From an uncultured Bacilli bacterium (lineage in GTDB: Bacteria; Bacillota_I; Bacilli_A; RF39; UBA660), in assembly GCA_934096705.1 (NCBI GenBank), contig CAKOMR010000001.1, positions 53,364 through 117,363 of the forward strand: DNA of 64,000 nucleotides. Direction: 5' to 3'. The position numbers were made by a program, and so were the translations under genes. The notes beneath the pieces were generated by a model. That model worked only from the letters and a program-made list of their open reading frames with translations, was not told the DNA's origin and searched no databases. How positions within the stretch are numbered: the first letter of the stretch is position 1; each line of letters starts with the position of its first letter. Below are positions 3,842 through 53,918 of this stretch, in pieces.

Positions 3842-3877
3842 TCTATGATATAATAATTTTAAGAAAAGAGGTATATA

Positions 3878-4651
3878 ATGGAAAAGAAAGAATATTTAAC
3901 TGAAGAACATTATGAAAATTGGCAAAAGAAAATTAAACTAGCTTCATTATTAGTTTTAATAATAGGATTAGTAATAGGTATTACTCTTATATGTGTAGGT
4001 GTTAGTAAAGCTAAAAAAGGAAATGAAAATGTAAATAATTTGGTTGACGGAGTAAGTAATACTGTAAATAATGTAACAAATTCAACTGGTAAATCACTTG
4101 CGGAAATTCAAAAAGAAATTGATGAATTAGAAGAAAAAATTAATAACATCAATGATGAAAAGAAAAAATTACAACAAGAATTAAATCAAATTTTCAAAGA
4201 AGATATGGATTTTAGTGATCGTTATTATGAGAAACAAAGTGAAATTGAAGAAAAAGATAAAGAGATTGAAAAATTAAATATGGATTTAATTTACCTTCAA
4301 AAGGAAAGAATGACAGCTGAAGGTAGCAATCTAATTGCTGACTCAGGCTTTGATGATATCTTTAACACTGCAAAAGATACTATAAAAGAACAAAGTAGTA
4401 AGCAAAAAGCTGCACCTTATTATGTATTTGGTGGATTTGTAATATTTATTTCTTTAGCTATTTCCGCAGCACTATATATGCAAACAAAACAACGTGAATT
4501 AGTAGCCTATAAAGCACAACAATTTAGACCAATAGTGGAGGAAGGTATTGAAAAAACAACTCCAACTGTTGCAAAAAGTGCTGGAACTATTGCTGAAAAT
4601 ATTACTCAAGGCATTAAAGATGGCCTAAAAGACGATAAAGAAGAAAAATAG
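3878..4651 (+). CDS. Hypothetical coiled-coil membrane protein
   Basis: N-terminal and C-terminal TM segments flank a long E/K-rich coiled-coil region. The gene is followed by a terminator. Confidence 0.4.
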   Translation: MEKKEYLTEEHYENWQKKIKLASLLVLIIGLVIGITLICVGVSKAKKGNENVNNLVDGVSNTVNNVTNSTGKSLAEIQKEIDELEEKINNINDEKKKLQQELNQIFKEDMDFSDRYYEKQSEIEEKDKEIEKLNMDLIYLQKERMTAEGSNLIADSGFDDIFNTAKDTIKEQSSKQKAAPYYVFGGFVIFISLAISAALYMQTKQRELVAYKAQQFRPIVEEGIEKTTPTVAKSAGTIAENITQGIKDGLKDDKEEK

Positions 4652-5326: not shown

Positions 5327-5626
5327 ATGGCAGTAAAATTAAGATTAAAAAGAATGGGTAGTAAACAAAAACCATTTTATCGTATTGTGGCTGCAGACAG
5401 CCGTAGTCCAAGAGATGGTCGTTTCATTGAAACAGTAGGAACTTATAATCCTATTAAAGGTAAAGAAGTTGTTACTATTGATGAAGAAAAAGCTTTAGCT
5501 TGGCTTTCAAAAGGCGCAATTCCTACTGATACAGTAAGAAGTATTTTCAGTAACCAAGGTGTTATGAAAAAATATGCTGAAAGCAAATCTTCAAAGAAAA
5601 AAGCAGAAAAAGTTAAGAAGGCTTAA
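5327..5626 (+). CDS. rpsP: 30S ribosomal protein S16
   Basis: [35 protein letters not shown]... is the S16 signature. ATG at 5327 is preceded by AAAGGAG, so it is preferred over the upstream TTG at 5312. Confidence 0.9.
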
Positions 5627-5628
5627 TT

Positions 5629-5874
5629 ATGGATATAAAAGAATATACTTCATTTTTAGTTAAAAGTATCGTAAAAAATCCAGATATGGTTAAAGTTGAA
5701 ATATTCGAAACTGAAGGTGAGGACCCTATATTAGAAATAATTGTTCATCACGATGATTTCGGTGCGGTTATTGGTAAGGGTGGAAAGATAGCTACTTCTT
5801 TAAGAACTATAATTCAAGCATATGCATTTTTGAATAAAATGCCAAAAGTTAAAGTAAATATTGATTCATTTTAA
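5629..5874 (+). CDS. KH-domain RNA-binding protein (YlqC/UPF0109 family)
   Basis: GAVIGKGGKIATSLRTI KH motif. It sits immediately after rpsP, as in the B. subtilis rpsP-ylqC arrangement. Confidence 0.8.
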   Translation: MDIKEYTSFLVKSIVKNPDMVKVEIFETEGEDPILEIIVHHDDFGAVIGKGGKIATSLRTIIQAYAFLNKMPKVKVNIDSF

Positions 5875-23049: not shown

Positions 23050-23644
23050 TAATGATTATAAAAAATGTATAGATCAAATAGAGAATAGTAAAGCTAGTTT
23101 TATTCATGTTGATATGTGTGATGGAAATTACGTTGAAACTAATAATATTGATATGAATCAAATTTTAACTCTTTTAAGTAATACTAAAAAAAAATTAAAT
23201 ATTCATTTAATGGTAAATAATCCTTTAGATTATATTGATAAACTTAAAAATTTAAATGTAGATGTAATAACTATTCATAATATTAATAATGCTATTAACG
23301 TATTAAAATATATTAAATCACTTGGCATTAAATGTGGGATTGCTATTAATCCCAATGAAGATTTAAAAAATTTTGAAAAATATTATTCAATTGTTGATGA
23401 AGTGCTTGTAATGAGTGTTATGCCTGGCAAGGGTGGCCAAAAGTTTATAGAAAGTGTACTAAAAACAATTGATAGTTTAAATTTAGTTAAAGATATGTAT
23501 CATTTTGATATAGCAATTGATGGTGGCATTAATAACGATACAGTTAACTTAATAAAAAACAAAAATTTAGATTTATTAATAAGTGGTTCATATATTACAA
23601 ATAGTGATAATTATAATGAAAATATAGATAAATTAGTATCATAA
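23021..23644 (+). CDS. rpe: Ribulose-phosphate 3-epimerase
   Basis: HVDMCDGNYV, MSVMPGKGGQKF, IAIDGGIN motifs. Confidence 0.8.
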   Translation: MKVAVSYLSSNDYKKCIDQIENSKASFIHVDMCDGNYVETNNIDMNQILTLLSNTKKKLNIHLMVNNPLDYIDKLKNLNVDVITIHNINNAINVLKYIKSLGIKCGIAINPNEDLKNFEKYYSIVDEVLVMSVMPGKGGQKFIESVLKTIDSLNLVKDMYHFDIAIDGGINNDTVNLIKNKNLDLLISGSYITNSDNYNENIDKLVS

Positions 23645-23670
23645 GGTTACAAGAAATTGTAACTTTTTTT
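23645..23670 (+). terminator. Rho-independent terminator after rpe
   Basis: ggttacaagaaattgtaac hairpin plus a T7 run. A second hairpin, aagcctattttttaggctt (23681-23700), follows. Confidence 0.6.
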
Positions 23671-23716
23671 ATAAAAATAAAAAGCCTATTTTTTAGGCTT
23701 ATAATGGTCAATATAT

Positions 23717-24063
23717 TTTCTTAAAACTAATACATTTAAGAAAAAACGTTCCCATATTTTCGTACTATTACAATCTAATATTATCATATTTTTATAAAAA
23801 TTTGTATATATTATGAAAAAATTGTCAAAATTTGGTAAAAATTTATAATATTTAATCTAAAATTGCATAATTTTAACAAAAAATTTCTAGTCAAAAAAAT
23901 GGTCAAAAATTTTTAAATTTTTTCTTTTAAATACTTGCTAAAATAGATACTTTAAAAAAAATATTTTTGAAAATTTATAGTCAGATTTTATTTTTGTATT
24001 CAATTTAACCTTTATTTATACTGAAAACTGAAAACTTTTCTTAAATGTATTAGTTTTAAGAAA
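23717..24063. repeat. Perfect 28-bp inverted repeats (23717-23744 and 24036-24063) flanking a 291-bp promoter-containing segment; candidate invertible DNA switch
   Basis: tttcttaaaactaatacatttaagaaaa at 23717-23744. Its exact reverse complement ttttcttaaatgtattagttttaagaaa is at 24036-24063. A TTGTCA-16-TATAAT element (23822-23849) lies inside, pointing toward the gene at 24097. Confidence 0.6.
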
Positions 24064-24096
24064 GATGAGCCCCGTATTTATGGGAGAAAATGCAGT

Positions 24097-26322
24097 ATGA
24101 AAAAGAAAATGTTATTTTTATTAACAGGAATAGTAATATGCTTAGCTATTTTATTCGGCTTTTATTACAATAATAAAACATTTTCCTTAAATAAAAGCAA
24201 TGCTAAAAAAAATGAAAAAATTGATAAACAAATGGCAATATTACTCAAAAGGTATGGAACTGATGAGTATTTAAATGTAGATTCAGATGAAGTTCCTAAG
24301 GGAAGCTATGTACTTAACAAAGAAAAATCAAATTGCGAAAATGGTGGTTCTGTTGTTAGTTATAATACTAAAACTGGTGCTATTGCTTTATCAATTGTTG
24401 GAAGTGATAAGTGTAATTTGTATTTTGATGAAATTGCTACTTTTTCAAGCATTTGTGCTGATGAAGACGATTTGTACACATGTTATAATAACAAGAAAGA
24501 TAAATTTACTGATATTGATTCTGTAAGTGGACCTTATGCTGGAATGTATAGATATTATGGTAAAGATGTTAATAATTATGTTAGCTTAGATGGAATGCTT
24601 TTTAGAATTATTGGCATTACTGATGAATCAAAAACGAATACAGATGTAGCTTTAAATCGAGGACAATTAAAATTAATAAAACCAGAAATAATTGATACTA
24701 CTTCTTGGTCAAATACTTTTGTTGATACGATTTTAAATAATACTAGTATTATACCATCATCCTGGACTAATAAAATAACTAAACAAAAATTTTATGATAA
24801 TGATTTGGATAATAGTGGTTATGCTCCTGGTTACACTGCTGAAATAAAACTTAGTTTAATGTATGATGATGACTTATATTATAGTGTGAAAGATGGTGTA
24901 AATTATTGCTATGGTTCAGGAACTTGTGCAAATTCATGGCTAAATTATGGTTATAACGAATGGACTGGAAGTAGAGCTGGATTTGATGGTATATGTTGGT
25001 ATATTCTTTCTATTACTGCAAATGGAAGTATTACTGATACAGAGGAAACGTCTTCTTTGGCAAGAAGAATAGTATTTTATTTAAAACCTAGTATAAAAAT
25101 TACAGGTGGTACTGGAGAAAAAGATAATCCTTATATACTTGGCGATAGTAATAAAACGTATGATTTAATTGTTCAGCCAGTTGCTCCTAAAATAGTTTCT
25201 GTAGTAGCAAATTATGATAGTACTATAACTGTTAAAGCTACAGATGAAAATGGCCTTTCAAGTTATTGTGTTAATCAAAGTAGTACAGATACAAGCTCAT
25301 GTACATGGATTAATAACACAAACACTACTTTTACAACATCTGTAATTCAAACTCCAGGAGATTATTATGTACATGTAAAAGATGTTGATAATTTAATTAC
25401 TCATTCATCCAAAATTACAATAGTTGGAGAAACATTATATCAAAGATTATTAAAAAATGTTCCGAATGGACTTAACACAACAGTTAATTATGGAATGTAT
25501 CGTTTTGTTGGTAATATTACAGATGACGATACATCAAATGCTGGAAAACTTGATAATTATATTTGCCTTGGAGCATATGATAAAGCAACATGCGTTTCAG
25601 ATCCAGATAAATATATGTATAGAATTATTGGCCTTGTAAAAGAAGATAATACGGGAACTAAACATGAAGAGGGAGAAATAAAAATAATTAAATATACTAA
25701 AGTCGGCAAATATCATAAATGGTCCGGTGGAACTATGAATAATGATGGTTTTATTAATCAAAATAATTATTTAGATTCATCTTTATGGACTGGACGTGTA
25801 CTAATTGGAACTAGTCCCTGTAATGCTACAACAGCTGACAATAGATGTACTATTACTTGGAGTCAAAGTACACTTAGATACTCAAGTGGTACTGATTATT
25901 CATTAAATGGTCCATCAAATTCATTTTTAAGTAGTATAAATTTTAAAGACAAAATAATTAGTGTTAAATGGCATAATCCTAAGTCGACTACTTATTCAGT
26001 AGATACTGAGTATTCTAGCACTAATATTGGAAACACTAACTATATAGGCCTACTATATGAGAATGATTATAAACAAGGAGGTTCTTGGCTGAATAAGTCT
26101 GGCTATACACTATATAATTATGGGCTATACTATAATGGTTCATACCATTTCAAAGTTGGAACTACTCCGTCTTCAGTGGATGATTATTATCTATGGCTTA
26201 AATCAGATGGAAAATGGGATACATATGGACATAATTATGTTAAACCGGTATTTTATTTGAATAGATATACTACATATAAATCAGGGAGTGGTACTTACGC
26301 TGATCCATTTATAATCAATTAA
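24097..26322 (+). CDS. Large secreted/surface protein (741 aa), paralog of the 730-aa and 487-aa surface proteins, with two C-type-lectin-like end modules
   Basis: N-terminal TM/signal and Y/N/T-rich sequence. The Cys-bracketed module NKEKSNCENGG...GSDKCNLYFDE is shared with the 42948 ORF. Modules ending RIVFYLKPSIKITGGTGEKDNPYIL and VKPVFYLNRYTTYKSGSGTYADPFIIN parallel the VR end of the 51446 ORF. Confidence 0.5.
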   Translation: MKKKMLFLLTGIVICLAILFGFYYNNKTFSLNKSNAKKNEKIDKQMAILLKRYGTDEYLNVDSDEVPKGSYVLNKEKSNCENGGSVVSYNTKTGAIALSIVGSDKCNLYFDEIATFSSICADEDDLYTCYNNKKDKFTDIDSVSGPYAGMYRYYGKDVNNYVSLDGMLFRIIGITDESKTNTDVALNRGQLKLIKPEIIDTTSWSNTFVDTILNNTSIIPSSWTNKITKQKFYDNDLDNSGYAPGYTAEIKLSLMYDDDLYYSVKDGVNYCYGSGTCANSWLNYGYNEWTGSRAGFDGICWYILSITANGSITDTEETSSLARRIVFYLKPSIKITGGTGEKDNPYILGDSNKTYDLIVQPVAPKIVSVVANYDSTITVKATDENGLSSYCVNQSSTDTSSCTWINNTNTTFTTSVIQTPGDYYVHVKDVDNLITHSSKITIVGETLYQRLLKNVPNGLNTTVNYGMYRFVGNITDDDTSNAGKLDNYICLGAYDKATCVSDPDKYMYRIIGLVKEDNTGTKHEEGEIKIIKYTKVGKYHKWSGGTMNNDGFINQNNYLDSSLWTGRVLIGTSPCNATTADNRCTITWSQSTLRYSSGTDYSLNGPSNSFLSSINFKDKIISVKWHNPKSTTYSVDTEYSSTNIGNTNYIGLLYENDYKQGGSWLNKSGYTLYNYGLYYNGSYHFKVGTTPSSVDDYYLWLKSDGKWDTYGHNYVKPVFYLNRYTTYKSGSGTYADPFIIN

Positions 26323-34258: not shown

Positions 34259-35815
34259 GTGATGAAAAAAACAAATAAAAAAACAAAAATAATTATAATA
34301 AGTATTTTAACTATTATTTTGATTATTGGAATTATAATAACAATCAAATCCAAAAAGAATTTGACTATAAATACAAATGTAAAAAAATTTGAGTCTGAAT
34401 ATAAAATGCTTGATAATAATTTACAATTATTAGATTTATATTTTTTAAAAGAGGAAAATAATGAAGAAAATATTGTTTATAGTCCAATTTCAATCAAATA
34501 TGCTTTAGCAATGCTTTCAGATGCGTCATTAGGTGATAGTAAAAGTCAAATTGATGCTGTTTTAGGTAAGTATAATTTCAAAAAATATGATAATAGTAAA
34601 AATGTTTCTTTTGCAAATGCCTTATTTATAAAAGATAGCTTTAAGCAGTATGTTAAAAATGATTATATAACTCAAATAAAAAATAAATATAATGGTGAAG
34701 TAATATATGATAGTTTTAATAGTCCAAATACTATTAATTCCTGGGTTTCTAATAAAACATTTAACTTAATAAATAATTTAATTGATGATGTTTCAAATAA
34801 TGATTTTATGTTAATAAATGCTCTTGCAATTGATATGAATTGGAACTATTTAATTCAACCAGTATTAACTGATAATAATAGTTCTGATTTTCAAAAGAAA
34901 ATATATGATAAAAAGCATTTTGATATATCAGCTTGGCATGTTGATTATCTTCATGAAGATTTAAATTCAATGTATATTAGTTCAATTGCTGCCGATGAAT
35001 ATCCTGTAATGAAATTCAATGATAAAGATGTAAGTTCTTTAAAGTTTGGTGCTTCAATTAATAATTATGATATTGTTAATGATTTAGGAAAAGAAAATAT
35101 TCGTAATGAAATCACTAAAGAATATGAGAAATGGGTTAGCGATGATTATTGTGAAGTTCATAAATATGAAGAAAGTAACACATTTGTCGATAAATTTATA
35201 AAAGAATTAGATTCAAATTATAAGGATATAGCAAGTTCAACAGATTTTAATTTTTATGTTGATGATAATGTTAAAGCTTTTGCCAAATACTTAAATGAAT
35301 ATAATGGTCTTAATTTAGAATATATTGGTATTATGCCTATAAATGAAAATTTAACTAGCTATATTAATACAGTAAAAGTTGAAGAAATAAAAAATATATT
35401 TAATAATCTAAAAGAAATAAAAATTGATAATTTTGAGAAGGGATATATTACACAAATCAAAGGAAATATTCCATTATTTAAGTTTGATTATGAACTTAAT
35501 CTCGAAAATGATTTAAAAAATATAGGTATTACGGACGTATTTAATGAAAATGCAAATCTTTCCAATTTAACAAATGAAAAAGCTTTAATTAATCCTGTTA
35601 TTCATAAAACTACGATTGAGTTTTCAAATGAGGGAATAAAAGCTTCTGCTGCAACTTCCATTGGAGGCTTTGGAGCAATAGATTGTAGTTTTGAACATTT
35701 ATATAAAGTACCTGTAAAAGTAATAGACTTGACTTTTGATAAACCTTTTATATTTTTTATCAGGAATATTAAAACAGGAGAAATTTGGTTTACTGGAGCT
35801 GTATATAGTCCATAA
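34259..35815 (+). CDS. Serpin-family serine protease inhibitor, membrane-anchored, with insertions
   Basis: N-terminal TM, then IVYSPISIKYALAMLSDASLGDSKSQI. Hinge/RCL NEGIKASAATSIGG. Canonical serpin C-terminus DKPFIFFIRNIKTGEIWFTGAVYSP. Confidence 0.8.
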   Translation: MMKKTNKKTKIIIISILTIILIIGIIITIKSKKNLTINTNVKKFESEYKMLDNNLQLLDLYFLKEENNEENIVYSPISIKYALAMLSDASLGDSKSQIDAVLGKYNFKKYDNSKNVSFANALFIKDSFKQYVKNDYITQIKNKYNGEVIYDSFNSPNTINSWVSNKTFNLINNLIDDVSNNDFMLINALAIDMNWNYLIQPVLTDNNSSDFQKKIYDKKHFDISAWHVDYLHEDLNSMYISSIAADEYPVMKFNDKDVSSLKFGASINNYDIVNDLGKENIRNEITKEYEKWVSDDYCEVHKYEESNTFVDKFIKELDSNYKDIASSTDFNFYVDDNVKAFAKYLNEYNGLNLEYIGIMPINENLTSYINTVKVEEIKNIFNNLKEIKIDNFEKGYITQIKGNIPLFKFDYELNLENDLKNIGITDVFNENANLSNLTNEKALINPVIHKTTIEFSNEGIKASAATSIGGFGAIDCSFEHLYKVPVKVIDLTFDKPFIFFIRNIKTGEIWFTGAVYSP

Positions 35816-42947: not shown

Positions 42948-44411
42948 ATGAATAAAAATAAGTTTAAAACATTTTTAAATAACTTAAAAATTGCTTTTAA
43001 TAAAAATAAGAAAAAAAGTATTACTATTTTAGTTATTTTAATTCTTTCAATTATATCAAGTGTAACACTTATTGCATATTCTTTTTATGTAAATAGATCT
43101 CAAAATTTAATTATATCTGGTATTGCTTCGCTTGATTCAAGTGATGTAAAAATTGATATTTATAGAGAAGATCGTGATTCAAATGGTACAGGAATTGGAA
43201 CATATTCACTTTCATATTATGTTCCAGGGGAAACAACTTATACTTATAATACAAGTAAAACATCTTGCGATGATGGAGTGACTATAAATAGTTTTAGTAA
43301 TAGCGTTTTTGCTGTAAATGCTACGAAAAAAGGAAAATGCAAAGTATACTTTGATGCTATAGACGGCTATATCGAAGATTATGTTGTTAATTTATTTGTT
43401 CAACAAACTCCAGGAAATACTGATAATAGCAATTATAATCAAATGGGTAAATTGCCTAAAATAGAAACGGGATATCATTATATTATTAATTCTTCGAAAA
43501 CTAGTTGTAGCCCTACAGCAACAGTATCCATTTCAGGAACCAATATAGTTGTAGAAACAACACAAAAGACAACTTGCACAGTTTATGTAGATAAAGAAGT
43601 ATATACTGCGGTACCTACAATAAGTACAGTATCTGTAAATGGTTATAAAATAAATACAACAATTACAGATGATCTTGGGATTCAAGAATATGGATATAGT
43701 ACTAGTAATACTGTCGAACCATCAGTTTATAAATCGATTAAAGAATCCAAAACTGTTACGATATCTGATGTTTTAGAAAATGGAACATATTATTTGTGGG
43801 CTAAAAATCTAGCTGGAAATACTTCTGTATCATCTGCATTTACTGTTAGTGTTACATTAACATTTGCAATAAATGATCTTGGCGTTGGAAGTAATTATGT
43901 TTATGCAACATTTACTTCACCTACAGGTATTGGGGGATATGGAATTGCTTATGATCAATATACAAAACCAACTGTTCAAACACCTAATGATATGTATAAT
44001 GCAAAAGTGTATAAATTTTATGAATCGTTACCATACAATGGAACATATTATTTATATTTATACAATAAAAGTAATGCTTCAGTACATAAACAATTTACTT
44101 TAAAAACATCAACATCTCCAACAATATCAAGTGTTATGTGGTATGGTAGTACTGGAACAAATAAAAAGTTAGGGTTTACACTTAAAGATAGTCAAGGATT
44201 AGCTGGCTTTCAAGTTGTGTCTTCAATAAGCAAATATAGTAGTAATAACTGGCTAAGTATTAGTGGAACATCTTTAACAGTTCCGGATGGTTATGGCGAT
44301 GGATCGAGAAAATTCGGTTATATTGGAATGAATTATATTTTTGTAAAGAATGAGCTTGGCGAAATAACTTTTTATGCTAAAAAAGTTAGTAGCTCAAACG
44401 CAGAAATATAA
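42948..44411 (+). CDS. Secreted repetitive surface protein (487 aa), paralog family member
   Basis: N-terminal TM/signal. Two Cys-bracketed modules (TSKTSCDDGVTINSFSNSVFAVNATKKGKCKVYFD and SSKTSCSPTATVSISGTNIVVETTQKTTCTVYVDK) resemble the module in the 24097 ORF. The rest is Thr/Ser/Tyr-rich. Confidence 0.45.
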   Translation: MNKNKFKTFLNNLKIAFNKNKKKSITILVILILSIISSVTLIAYSFYVNRSQNLIISGIASLDSSDVKIDIYREDRDSNGTGIGTYSLSYYVPGETTYTYNTSKTSCDDGVTINSFSNSVFAVNATKKGKCKVYFDAIDGYIEDYVVNLFVQQTPGNTDNSNYNQMGKLPKIETGYHYIINSSKTSCSPTATVSISGTNIVVETTQKTTCTVYVDKEVYTAVPTISTVSVNGYKINTTITDDLGIQEYGYSTSNTVEPSVYKSIKESKTVTISDVLENGTYYLWAKNLAGNTSVSSAFTVSVTLTFAINDLGVGSNYVYATFTSPTGIGGYGIAYDQYTKPTVQTPNDMYNAKVYKFYESLPYNGTYYLYLYNKSNASVHKQFTLKTSTSPTISSVMWYGSTGTNKKLGFTLKDSQGLAGFQVVSSISKYSSNNWLSISGTSLTVPDGYGDGSRKFGYIGMNYIFVKNELGEITFYAKKVSSSNAEI

Positions 44412-51445: not shown

Positions 51446-53638
51446 ATGAATAAATTAGATAAAAAAAGTTTAATTATTGTTATTTCATCAGTATTATTAA
51501 TAATAGCTGTTTCGGCAGTATCATTTGCCTTTTTAGGAAGTTTTCAAAGAACGCTTAATAATGCAAATGTAAATATCGTAGCTCAAAATGTTAATAATAC
51601 ATATTTTAATGTAACAAATAATGTATCATTTTCTTTAGATGTAGACCCAACAAAAATGAATGAAACAAATAATGGAAATTATGTGGCAGAAAATACGGCA
51701 ATACTCGATGTATCAATAAATCCAGCAGCAGATGGTTTAAGTGTCAAATGTACTTATGATATCATATTTGAATATGATTCATCTTCGAATATATACGGGG
51801 TAAGTCCAACCCCAGTAACCACAGGAGCAAGTAAAGAGCTTACTTTGCAAGCAATTGGGCCAAACGGAACAAGTGATTATTTTGAAGAAAAGAACTTTAA
51901 TTTAACAAGTAGGAAAAAAACAATAGTAAGTGGGGCAGAGATAGTAAATTCAATAGCAGATATGCCAACGACTCATAGATGGAAATTTGTAAATAGATTT
52001 TATAATCTAAATTTAGATCAATCAGCTCTAGCAAATAAATCATTTAAAGGAAGATATTATGTAGCAAATGTATCATGTGATAGATATGAAGATAATACAA
52101 TATATTCATTAATAAAAAATAGATATAAAAATAATGATACATATGTAAAACTATATAGTGAGTCAGATGCCAGCACATATGCAAATCCAGTATATTATTT
52201 TAATGGAGCAGTAGAAGATAACAATGTTCTTTTTGCAGGCTTTTGTTGGAAGATAGTAAGAACTACTGAAACTGGTGGAGTAAAAATGGTATATAATGGT
52301 ACTTTAATTGATACACCTAGTTCAGTAACACCTTTAGAAGAATCACAATATGTAAATGTAACTAATGATGCAACATATCCATATACATTTGATAGTACCA
52401 ATAAGACATGGACAAGTACAAATCATGATAATGATAAAACAGGAACAATAACTTTTACAGTTTCTGAGCCTGGAGATTATTATTTAAACTATACAGTGTC
52501 ATCAGAAACATGTTGTGATAAAGCAGAATTTTTAAAGGGTACTAACTCCCTAGGAAAATTCGCCAATTCGGGAACAATTGCTCTTACCGGGCTTACAACA
52601 TCAGATGTTATTACTGTAAAATATTCGAAAGATGGTTCAGCATCATCCGGAAGTGATAATGTAATATTTAGCTTAGGAAAAGCAATTGGTGAAGTTAAAA
52701 AATCATGTAATAACAGCGGTACAGCTACACAACTGGCAAGTACAAAAGCATTTAATAGTTCTTCTTCACCGGCATATGTGGGATATATGTATAACACAGT
52801 TTATAAATATTCAAGTAAGAGTATGTCATCACAATCAAATATAGTATTTGGAAATTCATTTAATTATAATAGTAATAATGGTACTTATACATTAACTGGT
52901 ACAAAAACAATAGTAACTTGGTCAAGTGGCTATAATACAATCAATAGTAATCATTATACATGTTTTACTACAGGAACAACATGTACATCACTTTATTATG
53001 TATATTATACAAATTCAAGTACTGCATATTATATAACGCTTTCAAATGGTAAATCGGTAGACGATGCATTAAATGAAATGTTATATGCAGATGATGTAAA
53101 TAAAACTGATAGTACAATAAAAGCATATATAGACACATGGTATAAAGACAACATGACAAGTTATACTGATAAACTTGAAGACACAGTATTTTGTAATGAC
53201 AGGACAATGTATAACCAATCAGCAAATGGATGGAATCCAAATGGAGGAAGTACAACAGAAACATTACGATTTAAAAATTATAATACCAATTATAGCTTAG
53301 CGTGTACAAATGAAACAGATAGATTTAGTGTGAGCAATAATAAAGCAAAATTAACATACCCAGTTGGTCTACTATCCGCACCGGAGGTGTGGCTAGCATA
53401 TAGAAATGCCAATTATAGTTCATATTATTTGAATACCGGTAATATGTACTGGCTTGCTTCCCCTATCAGCTTCAACAACAACAACGCCAGCGGCAGGTAC
53501 GTGGCCACCGCGGGTAACATAAGCGGCAGCAACGTCAGCATCATCAGTATGGAGGGCGTGCGTCCGGCCGTTTCCTTGAAGCCTGGCACCGGGTATACAG
53601 GTGATGGGTCGTATACAAATCCGTTCGTAGTAGAATAG
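51446..53638 (+). CDS. Large surface protein (730 aa): SipW-type signal peptide, TasA/camelysin-like N-terminal domain, and a C-terminal C-type-lectin-like domain carrying a DGR-type variable region
   Basis: N-terminus ...AVSAVSFAFLGSF. Homology to the 33469 ORF. C-terminus WLASPISFNNNNASGRYVATAGNISGSNVSIISMEGVRPAVSLKPGTGYTGDGSYTNPFVVE. The 3' end is strongly GC-rich relative to the genome and is repeated downstream with A-specific differences. Confidence 0.6.
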   Translation: MNKLDKKSLIIVISSVLLIIAVSAVSFAFLGSFQRTLNNANVNIVAQNVNNTYFNVTNNVSFSLDVDPTKMNETNNGNYVAENTAILDVSINPAADGLSVKCTYDIIFEYDSSSNIYGVSPTPVTTGASKELTLQAIGPNGTSDYFEEKNFNLTSRKKTIVSGAEIVNSIADMPTTHRWKFVNRFYNLNLDQSALANKSFKGRYYVANVSCDRYEDNTIYSLIKNRYKNNDTYVKLYSESDASTYANPVYYFNGAVEDNNVLFAGFCWKIVRTTETGGVKMVYNGTLIDTPSSVTPLEESQYVNVTNDATYPYTFDSTNKTWTSTNHDNDKTGTITFTVSEPGDYYLNYTVSSETCCDKAEFLKGTNSLGKFANSGTIALTGLTTSDVITVKYSKDGSASSGSDNVIFSLGKAIGEVKKSCNNSGTATQLASTKAFNSSSSPAYVGYMYNTVYKYSSKSMSSQSNIVFGNSFNYNSNNGTYTLTGTKTIVTWSSGYNTINSNHYTCFTTGTTCTSLYYVYYTNSSTAYYITLSNGKSVDDALNEMLYADDVNKTDSTIKAYIDTWYKDNMTSYTDKLEDTVFCNDRTMYNQSANGWNPNGGSTTETLRFKNYNTNYSLACTNETDRFSVSNNKAKLTYPVGLLSAPEVWLAYRNANYSSYYLNTGNMYWLASPISFNNNNASGRYVATAGNISGSNVSIISMEGVRPAVSLKPGTGYTGDGSYTNPFVVE
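53450..53575 (+). repeat. DGR-like variable repeat (VR) at the 3' end of the 51446 ORF
   Basis: 126 nt homologous to 53799-53918. Over the first 30 aligned codons there are 13 mismatches, and 12 fall where the downstream copy has adenine. Confidence 0.65.
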
Positions 53639-53798: not shown

Positions 53799-53918
53799 TG
53801 GCTTGCTTCCCCTAACAACTTCAACAACAACAACGCCAACGGCAGGAACGTGAACACCACGGGTAACATGAACAACAACAACGTCAACAATGCGGGGAGC
53901 GCGCGTCCAGCCATTTTC
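53799..53918 (+). repeat. DGR-like template repeat (TR): AAC-codon-rich copy of the VR
   Basis: Within its first 30 in-frame codons, 15 are AAC, against 6 in the VR. It is non-coding in context, although the frame runs to gaa-taa at 53919-53924. Confidence 0.6.

Follow-up and report, generated by a model that had tools for sequence, protein, structure and literature searches.

A 291-bp segment of non-coding DNA directly upstream of a gene for a 741-aa membrane-anchored protein occurs in both orientations in natural gut communities, and we consider it very probable that this segment is a site-specific inversion switch carrying the promoter of the gene, which in the 64,000-nt stretch of DNA analyzed here (the window) would stand in the state where its conserved promoter candidate, P2, points away from the gene (P2-OFF). 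The host is a spore-forming member of the Bacilli with ~26% G+C, known from metagenome-assembled genomes (MAGs) only. The switch is preceded by the genes for PP2C, PrkC, RsgA and Rpe, and on its other side come the 741-aa gene, LexA (opposite strand) and transketolase. A switch at this position had been guessed from the letters of the window in a preliminary description; it has now been seen in both states in nature, as one of about 20 related switches that could be placed in uncultured Bacilli of human (including Hadza) gut metagenomes. The features of the switch region, in window coordinates, are the following.

23643 to 23671, plus strand: predicted intrinsic terminator of rpe, with stem AAGGUUACAA/UUGUAACUUU followed by a U run (RNA fold and sequence).
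23672 to 23700, minus strand: predicted intrinsic terminator, AAGCCUA-loop-UAGGCUU followed by UUUAUUUUUAU (RNA fold).
23716 to 23744: gene-distal recombination site, 29 bp, TTTTCTTAAA-ACTAATACA-TTTAAGAAAA, with the perfect arm at 23717 to 23744.
23745 to 24035: invertible segment, 291 bp, present as its exact reverse complement in contigs L002 and L004.
23780 to 23808, minus strand: P2, a family-conserved promoter-like block, TATACA-17-GATAAT (alternatively TG-a-TAATAT).
23822 to 23849, plus strand: P1, a candidate promoter, TTGTCA-16-TATAAT, scoring 11/12 and facing the gene in the window orientation.
24036 to 24064: gene-proximal recombination site, 29 bp, TTTTCTTAAA-TGTATTAGT-TTTAAGAAAg, with the perfect arm at 24036 to 24063.
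24065 to 24096, plus strand: fixed leader with a conserved CCCCGTATTTATGGG motif and a Shine-Dalgarno sequence, GGGAG, at 24082 to 24086.
24097 to 26322, plus strand: gene under putative control of the switch, 741 aa, with a transmembrane helix, an N-terminal module, beta-rich domains and DUF6273-like endings.

The two arms are 28-nt inverted repeats of 100% complementarity around 291 nt that contain no gene, with 33 nt between the right arm and the ATG at 24097; the coordinates, the complementarity and the gap given in the preliminary description were all reproduced. Across the 64 kb window the 28-mer occurs in these two copies only, with up to 3 mismatches allowed, and 100 dinucleotide-preserving shuffles yielded no match, none being expected by chance. 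The layout is that of an inverton, with inverted repeats around a short intergenic segment beside a gene. Each arm is also internally palindromic (TTTTCTTAAA-N9-TTTAAGAAAA), the palindromy extending modestly beyond the arms, and the two window arms differ solely in the direction of an asymmetric 9-nt spacer, ACTAATACA versus TGTATTAGT. No Rfam families or tRNAs were found in the switch region. Both hairpins 3′ of rpe had been read as insulating the switch from read-through, which holds for the first (23643-23666 plus a T run), a plus-strand terminator for rpe; the T run of the second (23682-23700) stands solely on the minus strand, and this hairpin should therefore stop leftward transcripts leaving the switch, not rpe read-through. 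The distal side of the switch is bordered by terminators of both directions.

Public assemblies were queried with the exact 741-aa and Rpe proteins, and orientations were read from the assembled contigs. A 150-kb contig from a Hadza gut metagenome (L001/L003, ERZ4561110) matches the unaltered window exactly, while two further contigs become exact substrings of the window only after 23745-24035 is reverse-complemented: L002 (2706 nt, Logan ERR7747140), spanning 67 nt, the right arm and the entire gene, and L004 (1165 nt, Logan ERR7738223), spanning rpe, the left arm and 157 nt further. In these two independent runs the breakpoints of the flip fall exactly at the repeat boundaries and the remaining DNA is identical, so that both orientations exist in natural populations at 100% identity; the predicted invertibility is borne out. 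Since these orientations come from assemblies, and the flipped contigs at this locus are short, one might suppose that there is no programmed switch and that errors of assembly, or rare RecA-mediated recombination of chance repeats, produced the flipped contigs. We regard this as scarcely credible: the 28-nt arm is shorter than the assembly k-mers (k = 31 assumed for Logan), so that the flipped junctions must presumably derive from reads, the flip is exact in both runs, the expected number of chance matches is zero, and the same site architecture recurs across many loci and species, with its own spacer for each pair and with both states seen repeatedly.

This recurrence was found with the arm, its half-sites and the encoded proteins. 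In MAGs of low-G+C Bacilli, about 20 switches built on the same half-sites were found immediately 5′ of genes that have the N-terminal anchor module in common, and most of these switches have an invertible core of only ~90 nt. An arm scan of 185,579 reference genomes returned one locus, L005 (MAG CAKONC010000001.1), where a 291-bp switch, 84% identical, lies 5′ of an 814-aa gene in the orientation opposite to the window. A metagenome scan with the half-sites around any spacer gave 104 matches, mostly single chance palindromes, together with eight loci where a second inverted copy lies ~119 nt away; all eight are directly 5′ of genes whose products share with the 741-aa protein its N-terminal anchor and its ~110-aa module, at 35-46% identity. 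Ten further loci came from a homologue look-up with the L005 protein. An exact 25-mer of the arm had no match in JGI metagenomes and IMG/VR, and the 5 single sites that the half-site pattern retrieved in IMG/VR were judged chance matches. Opposite orientations of one locus were found in L038 versus L075, in L059 versus L093, and in L123, L126, L127, L129 and L130 versus L124 and L125, seven contigs that all encode an identical 796-aa protein. No switch accompanies P0002, an ortholog from another lineage that is 56% identical to the 741-aa protein.

Several individual loci deserve separate mention. L073 has two family genes side by side, each behind a ~90-nt switch of its own (3856-4002 and 5617-5763), with different spacers and in opposite states, which fits independent switching of neighbouring genes. 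In L122 (7940-7968), L132 (2940-2968) and L133 (2940-2968), otherwise near-identical in DNA to L005, the proximal 9-nt spacer is exactly reverse-complemented relative to L005; the arms are therefore direct repeats between which inversion is impossible, and these could be naturally locked (or excision-prone) switches, for which a hairpin-loop flip is a possible origin. In L131 (9871-10001; GCA_021628585.1, JAJXSO010000002.1) the inverton-controlled gene is interrupted at an A-rich tract, AAAAAAAAGAAAACAAAATAA, which cuts its N-terminal 39 codons off from the main ORF; a frameshift, an error of sequencing or a second switch, of the slipped-strand kind, may lie behind this. A motif, CC(C/T)-N-GTATTTA(Y)G, recurs 5-10 nt from the recombination sites: it stands on the gene side and at the promoter end of the invertible DNA (24070-24084 and 23750-23762 in the window), and in the small switches it stands in the distal flank (L038, L050, L059, L063, L073 and L075). 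The motif may serve as a leader hairpin or as a site for an accessory protein.

Alignment of the 22 arms of 11 switches resolves the grammar of the recombination site. Between loci, conservation covers the 10 outermost positions at either end of the site, and the central positions vary. Within pairs, the 9-nt spacer is identical in 8 of the 11 switches (6 mismatches in 99 positions), and the half-sites hold 27 of the 33 mismatches (27 in 220 positions). At one locus for which both states are available, the inner half-site has a variant form, TATAGGAAAA, that moves with the same end of the invertible DNA while the outer half-sites stay with the flanks, which places strand exchange within the spacer. 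Spacer position 1 is T and position 9 is A in most members, which gives an 11-7-11 reading of the site; otherwise it reads 10-9-10. Core sites of tyrosine recombinases consist of inverted 11-13-bp elements around an asymmetric overlap of 6-8 bp, and the overlaps of the two partners must be identical. The sites described here have this geometry, with inverted half-sites around an asymmetric spacer, and on comparative evidence their overlap is identical between partners and contains the point of exchange; from the site geometry we infer that a tyrosine recombinase acts on them. Serine invertases of the Hin/Gin/Cin type use a 26-bp hix site (12-2-12, with a 2-bp core) and have the invertase gene and an enhancer inside or adjacent to the invertible DNA. 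Such a system was rejected, given the 29-bp site, the odd 9-nt spacer, the 291 bp without a gene and no resolvase-family match nearby. A Pfam search of most window ORFs of at least 90 aa, repeated at E up to 1 for those without a match, revealed no recombinase, and neither did Pfam within 10 kb past either window end or on the neighbours of the relatives' switches, in agreement with the earlier remark that such enzymes are often encoded elsewhere.

The question of which orientation expresses the gene depends on two divergent promoter candidates, whose −35 elements are 14 nt apart (23808 versus 23822) and which both pass a consensus scan. P1, the promoter on which the preliminary description relied, was recovered on the plus strand at 23822-23849 as TTGTCA-16-TATAAT facing the gene, whereas P2, on the minus strand from 23808 to 23780, runs towards rpe and the minus-strand terminator and scores 9/12 by simple consensus. 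In an alignment of five 291-bp-type switches, P2 is the longest invariant run (28/29 positions) and P1 is invariant at 17/28 positions, its −35 element matching at 3/6 in L005 and L122 and its −10 element being lost in L134. P1 belongs to ~200 nt of inserted DNA that only the 291-bp type has and that the ~90-nt switches lack. In the latter, the best promoter-like site occupies one fixed position in 8/9 cases, the exception being the degenerate L063, and has the form of P2: a −35 element TAGnnn (TAG(T/A)nn), 17 nt, TGnTATTAT or TATAAT, then a conserved TTAATAGTAAGATACGTAAATA. Among relatives at the PNPase locus, P2 faces the intact gene in 5/5 contigs, three of which are the locked L122, L132 and L133, from different samples, whose arms are in direct orientation and non-invertible. 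An intact gene fixed with P2 towards it argues that this is an expressing state. The conservation of P2, its direction in the window and the locked relatives all speak against the earlier statement that the window is presently ON; the window most likely represents the P2-OFF state, and its orientation is probably either OFF or driven by P1 as an alternative promoter.

The model of the preliminary description, in which P1 is the sole functional promoter and the flip turns the gene from ON to OFF, draws on the rarity of its score. The whole window holds 9 sites scoring 11/12, the six on the plus strand all lie 5′ of a same-strand gene start (five at 11-102 nt, P1 at 248 nt), shuffling of the 291 bp produces such a site in 3.4% of cases, and no terminator lies between P1 and the gene. 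With such a score, rare in the window and in shuffles, P1 may be a genuine promoter, and the gene may be expressed in the window orientation. Nevertheless, its place in an insertion that the ~90-nt switches do not have, the poor conservation of its hexamers and its pointing away from the intact gene in all five PNPase-locus contigs, including the three that are non-invertible, make P1 improbable as the only promoter. The best consensus promoter in AT-rich DNA can evidently indicate the wrong switch state.

Somewhat more room is left for a promoter swap, in which both back-to-back promoters work and the gene is transcribed either way with different strength or regulation, so that inversion would tune expression rather than silence it. 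The divergent arrangement, the near-consensus P1 and the conserved P2 are compatible with it, and so are the leaders of ~245 nt (P1) and ~100 nt (P2), which fold differently around the Shine-Dalgarno sequence, although these RNA folds do not discriminate ON from OFF. Most family members, however, have space for one promoter only, and the other 291-bp-type switches have a weak P1 or none, and we hold the swap to be a tentative alternative. The arms with their flanks also fold as strong hairpins in the leader, and this raises the thought of a switch whose promoter is external to the invertible DNA and whose leader acquires a terminator in one of the two orientations. Clostridioides difficile cwpV works in this way, its promoter being outside the invertible DNA and its OFF state arising via a leader terminator (PMC2784873). 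For the window this is highly unlikely, as the rpe-side terminators leave only 15 nt before the distal site, no promoter-like site was detected in that gap, and neither orientation creates a G+C-rich stem followed by a U run; a leader switch of the cwpV type was rejected, with neither an outside promoter nor an orientation-specific terminator found.

The preferred reading, an inversion switch with P2 as its promoter, could operate as follows. The half-sites TTTTCTTAAA(T) and (A)TTTAAGAAAA, inverted around an asymmetric 7-9-bp spacer, would be bound by a recombinase encoded elsewhere in the genome, which would exchange strands inside the spacer; as the two spacers are oppositely oriented, the exchange would flip the intervening 291 bp. 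In the window orientation, transcripts from P2 would leave the gene behind and stop at the minus-strand terminator (23700-23672). After inversion, P2 would face the gene and give a leader of ~100 nt with the proximal site as a hairpin. P1 may sustain some transcription in the window orientation, in which case the switch would exchange promoters without full silencing.

The 741-aa product is, as a reasonable inference from its predicted features, a surface protein. Its first part is a transmembrane helix (residues 2-28), read as a membrane anchor, and it also contains the conserved N-terminal module of ~110 aa and, twice, a DUF6273-like 'RPVFYL..G.G...P' ending; its relatives carry DUF6273. The protein itself has no Pfam match and no PDB sequence match. 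Its structure model (pLDDT 66.8) shows the N-terminal helix followed by beta-rich domains, with weak fold matches in PDB to Ig/FN3-like folds and to the Thomasclavelia ramosa IgA peptidase (E 1.4e-4). The 133-aa N-terminal module alone, used as query in an index-limited word-index search, had no matches. A 487-aa ORF elsewhere in the window (42948-44411), without a Pfam match, is weakly similar to this module (tblastn E 0.008) and may be a distant family member without a switch. Two other genes of the window are of interest in themselves. The first, at 59-2695 (full gene at L008:5615-9988, 1457 aa), encodes a Peptidase_C1 domain, Listeria-Bacteroides repeats and a type I dockerin, with a gene for a cadherin-like protein next after it; a dockerin is unexpected in a small, low-G+C Bacilli genome. 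The second, at 34259-35815, encodes a 518-aa protein with a serpin domain, and bacterial serpins are uncommon.

A second kind of variation, of the DGR type, touches the same protein family. At 53450-53540, the 3′ end of a 730-aa gene (51446-53638), lies a VR that differs from a TR at 53799-53889, just downstream of the gene, at 13 positions, of which 12 are TR adenines, and the TR/VR pair proposed earlier is thus upheld. No reverse transcriptase lies beside it, as no RVT match was obtained among window ORFs of at least 90 aa or in 10 kb beyond. The 730-aa DGR target had been called a paralog of the 741-aa protein, a relationship that their marginal similarity (E 0.055) does not sustain, and no variable region was found in the 741-aa gene. 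The further idea that two variation mechanisms act on one family does hold in relatives, there on the same gene. The ~800-aa genes controlled by the invertons of L005, L122, L132, L134, L131 and L123 have an internal region that matches the window TR (gene nt 1308-1418 in L005), with mostly A-specific differences, for example 18/21 in L122, and a search downstream of these genes found no adjacent TR. Judged by these patterns, the relatives' genes would be both phase-variable and DGR targets. In another Hadza strain, L011:931-2730 encodes a 599-aa protein in place of the window's 730-aa DGR target, which indicates strain-level turnover at this locus.

Such a combination of an inverton and a DGR-type region on one gene would be an unusual stacking of two variation mechanisms, and it suggests strong host or phage pressure on the protein family. 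A broader reading, which we put forward as no better than a cautious possibility, is a lineage-wide phase-variation system in uncultured low-G+C gut Bacilli, where one trans-acting recombinase would serve a conserved, lox-like 29-bp site, locus-specific spacers would prevent cross-recombination, and many surface-protein genes would be switched individually, some of them also hypermutated by a DGR from a remote template, with the 291-bp version swapping promoters. In a host without genetics, the grammar of the 29-bp site offers a handle for counting ON and OFF states in metagenomes, for searching for the recombinase and for defining its regulon.

Invertons occur widely and have been catalogued in large numbers, among others in Firmicutes from human metagenomes (PMC11602134). 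In the mpl (P35) family of Mycoplasma penetrans, each surface protein gene has its own invertible promoter immediately 5′ of it (PMC10502178). The family described here resembles mpl in its low-G+C Bacillota/Mollicutes-type host and in its small, per-gene switch, with adjacent switched genes in L073, and it differs in that mpl encodes lipoproteins rather than transmembrane-anchored proteins and has no sequence relationship to it. The mpl repeats are short (~12 bp), whereas the repeats here are 29-bp lox-like palindromes. In C. difficile cwpV, inverted repeats of ~21 bp surround ~195 bp located 57 bp 5′ of a cell-surface protein gene, and the cwpV and flgB switches depend on RecV, a tyrosine recombinase encoded elsewhere (PMC2784873, PMC5386303). 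The Gram-positive gut host, the layout and the remote recombinase are shared with cwpV; the differences are that the promoter candidates here lie inside the segment, that no comparable leader terminator occurs, and that the repeats are perfect and internally palindromic. Escherichia coli fimS (FimB/FimE) and the capsule switches of Bacteroides fragilis under Mpi control are likewise invertible promoters with short inverted repeats and tyrosine recombinases. Mpi is one enzyme serving many dispersed switches, and the fim recombinases are encoded beside their switch, which has 9-bp repeats. Neither system has the 10-9-10 palindromic site found here, and both belong to other organisms and act on other target proteins. 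The likeness to loxP, FRT and dif is one of geometry alone (11-7-11), without sequence similarity, with spacers that differ between loci here and with no Cre, Flp or Xer homologue linked to the sites. A limited literature search found no description of the present switch family or of an inverton and a DGR on one gene, and the family is apparently undescribed. What sets it apart from the known systems are its lox-like sites with locus-specific spacers, possibly its dual promoters, and its overlap with DGR targets.
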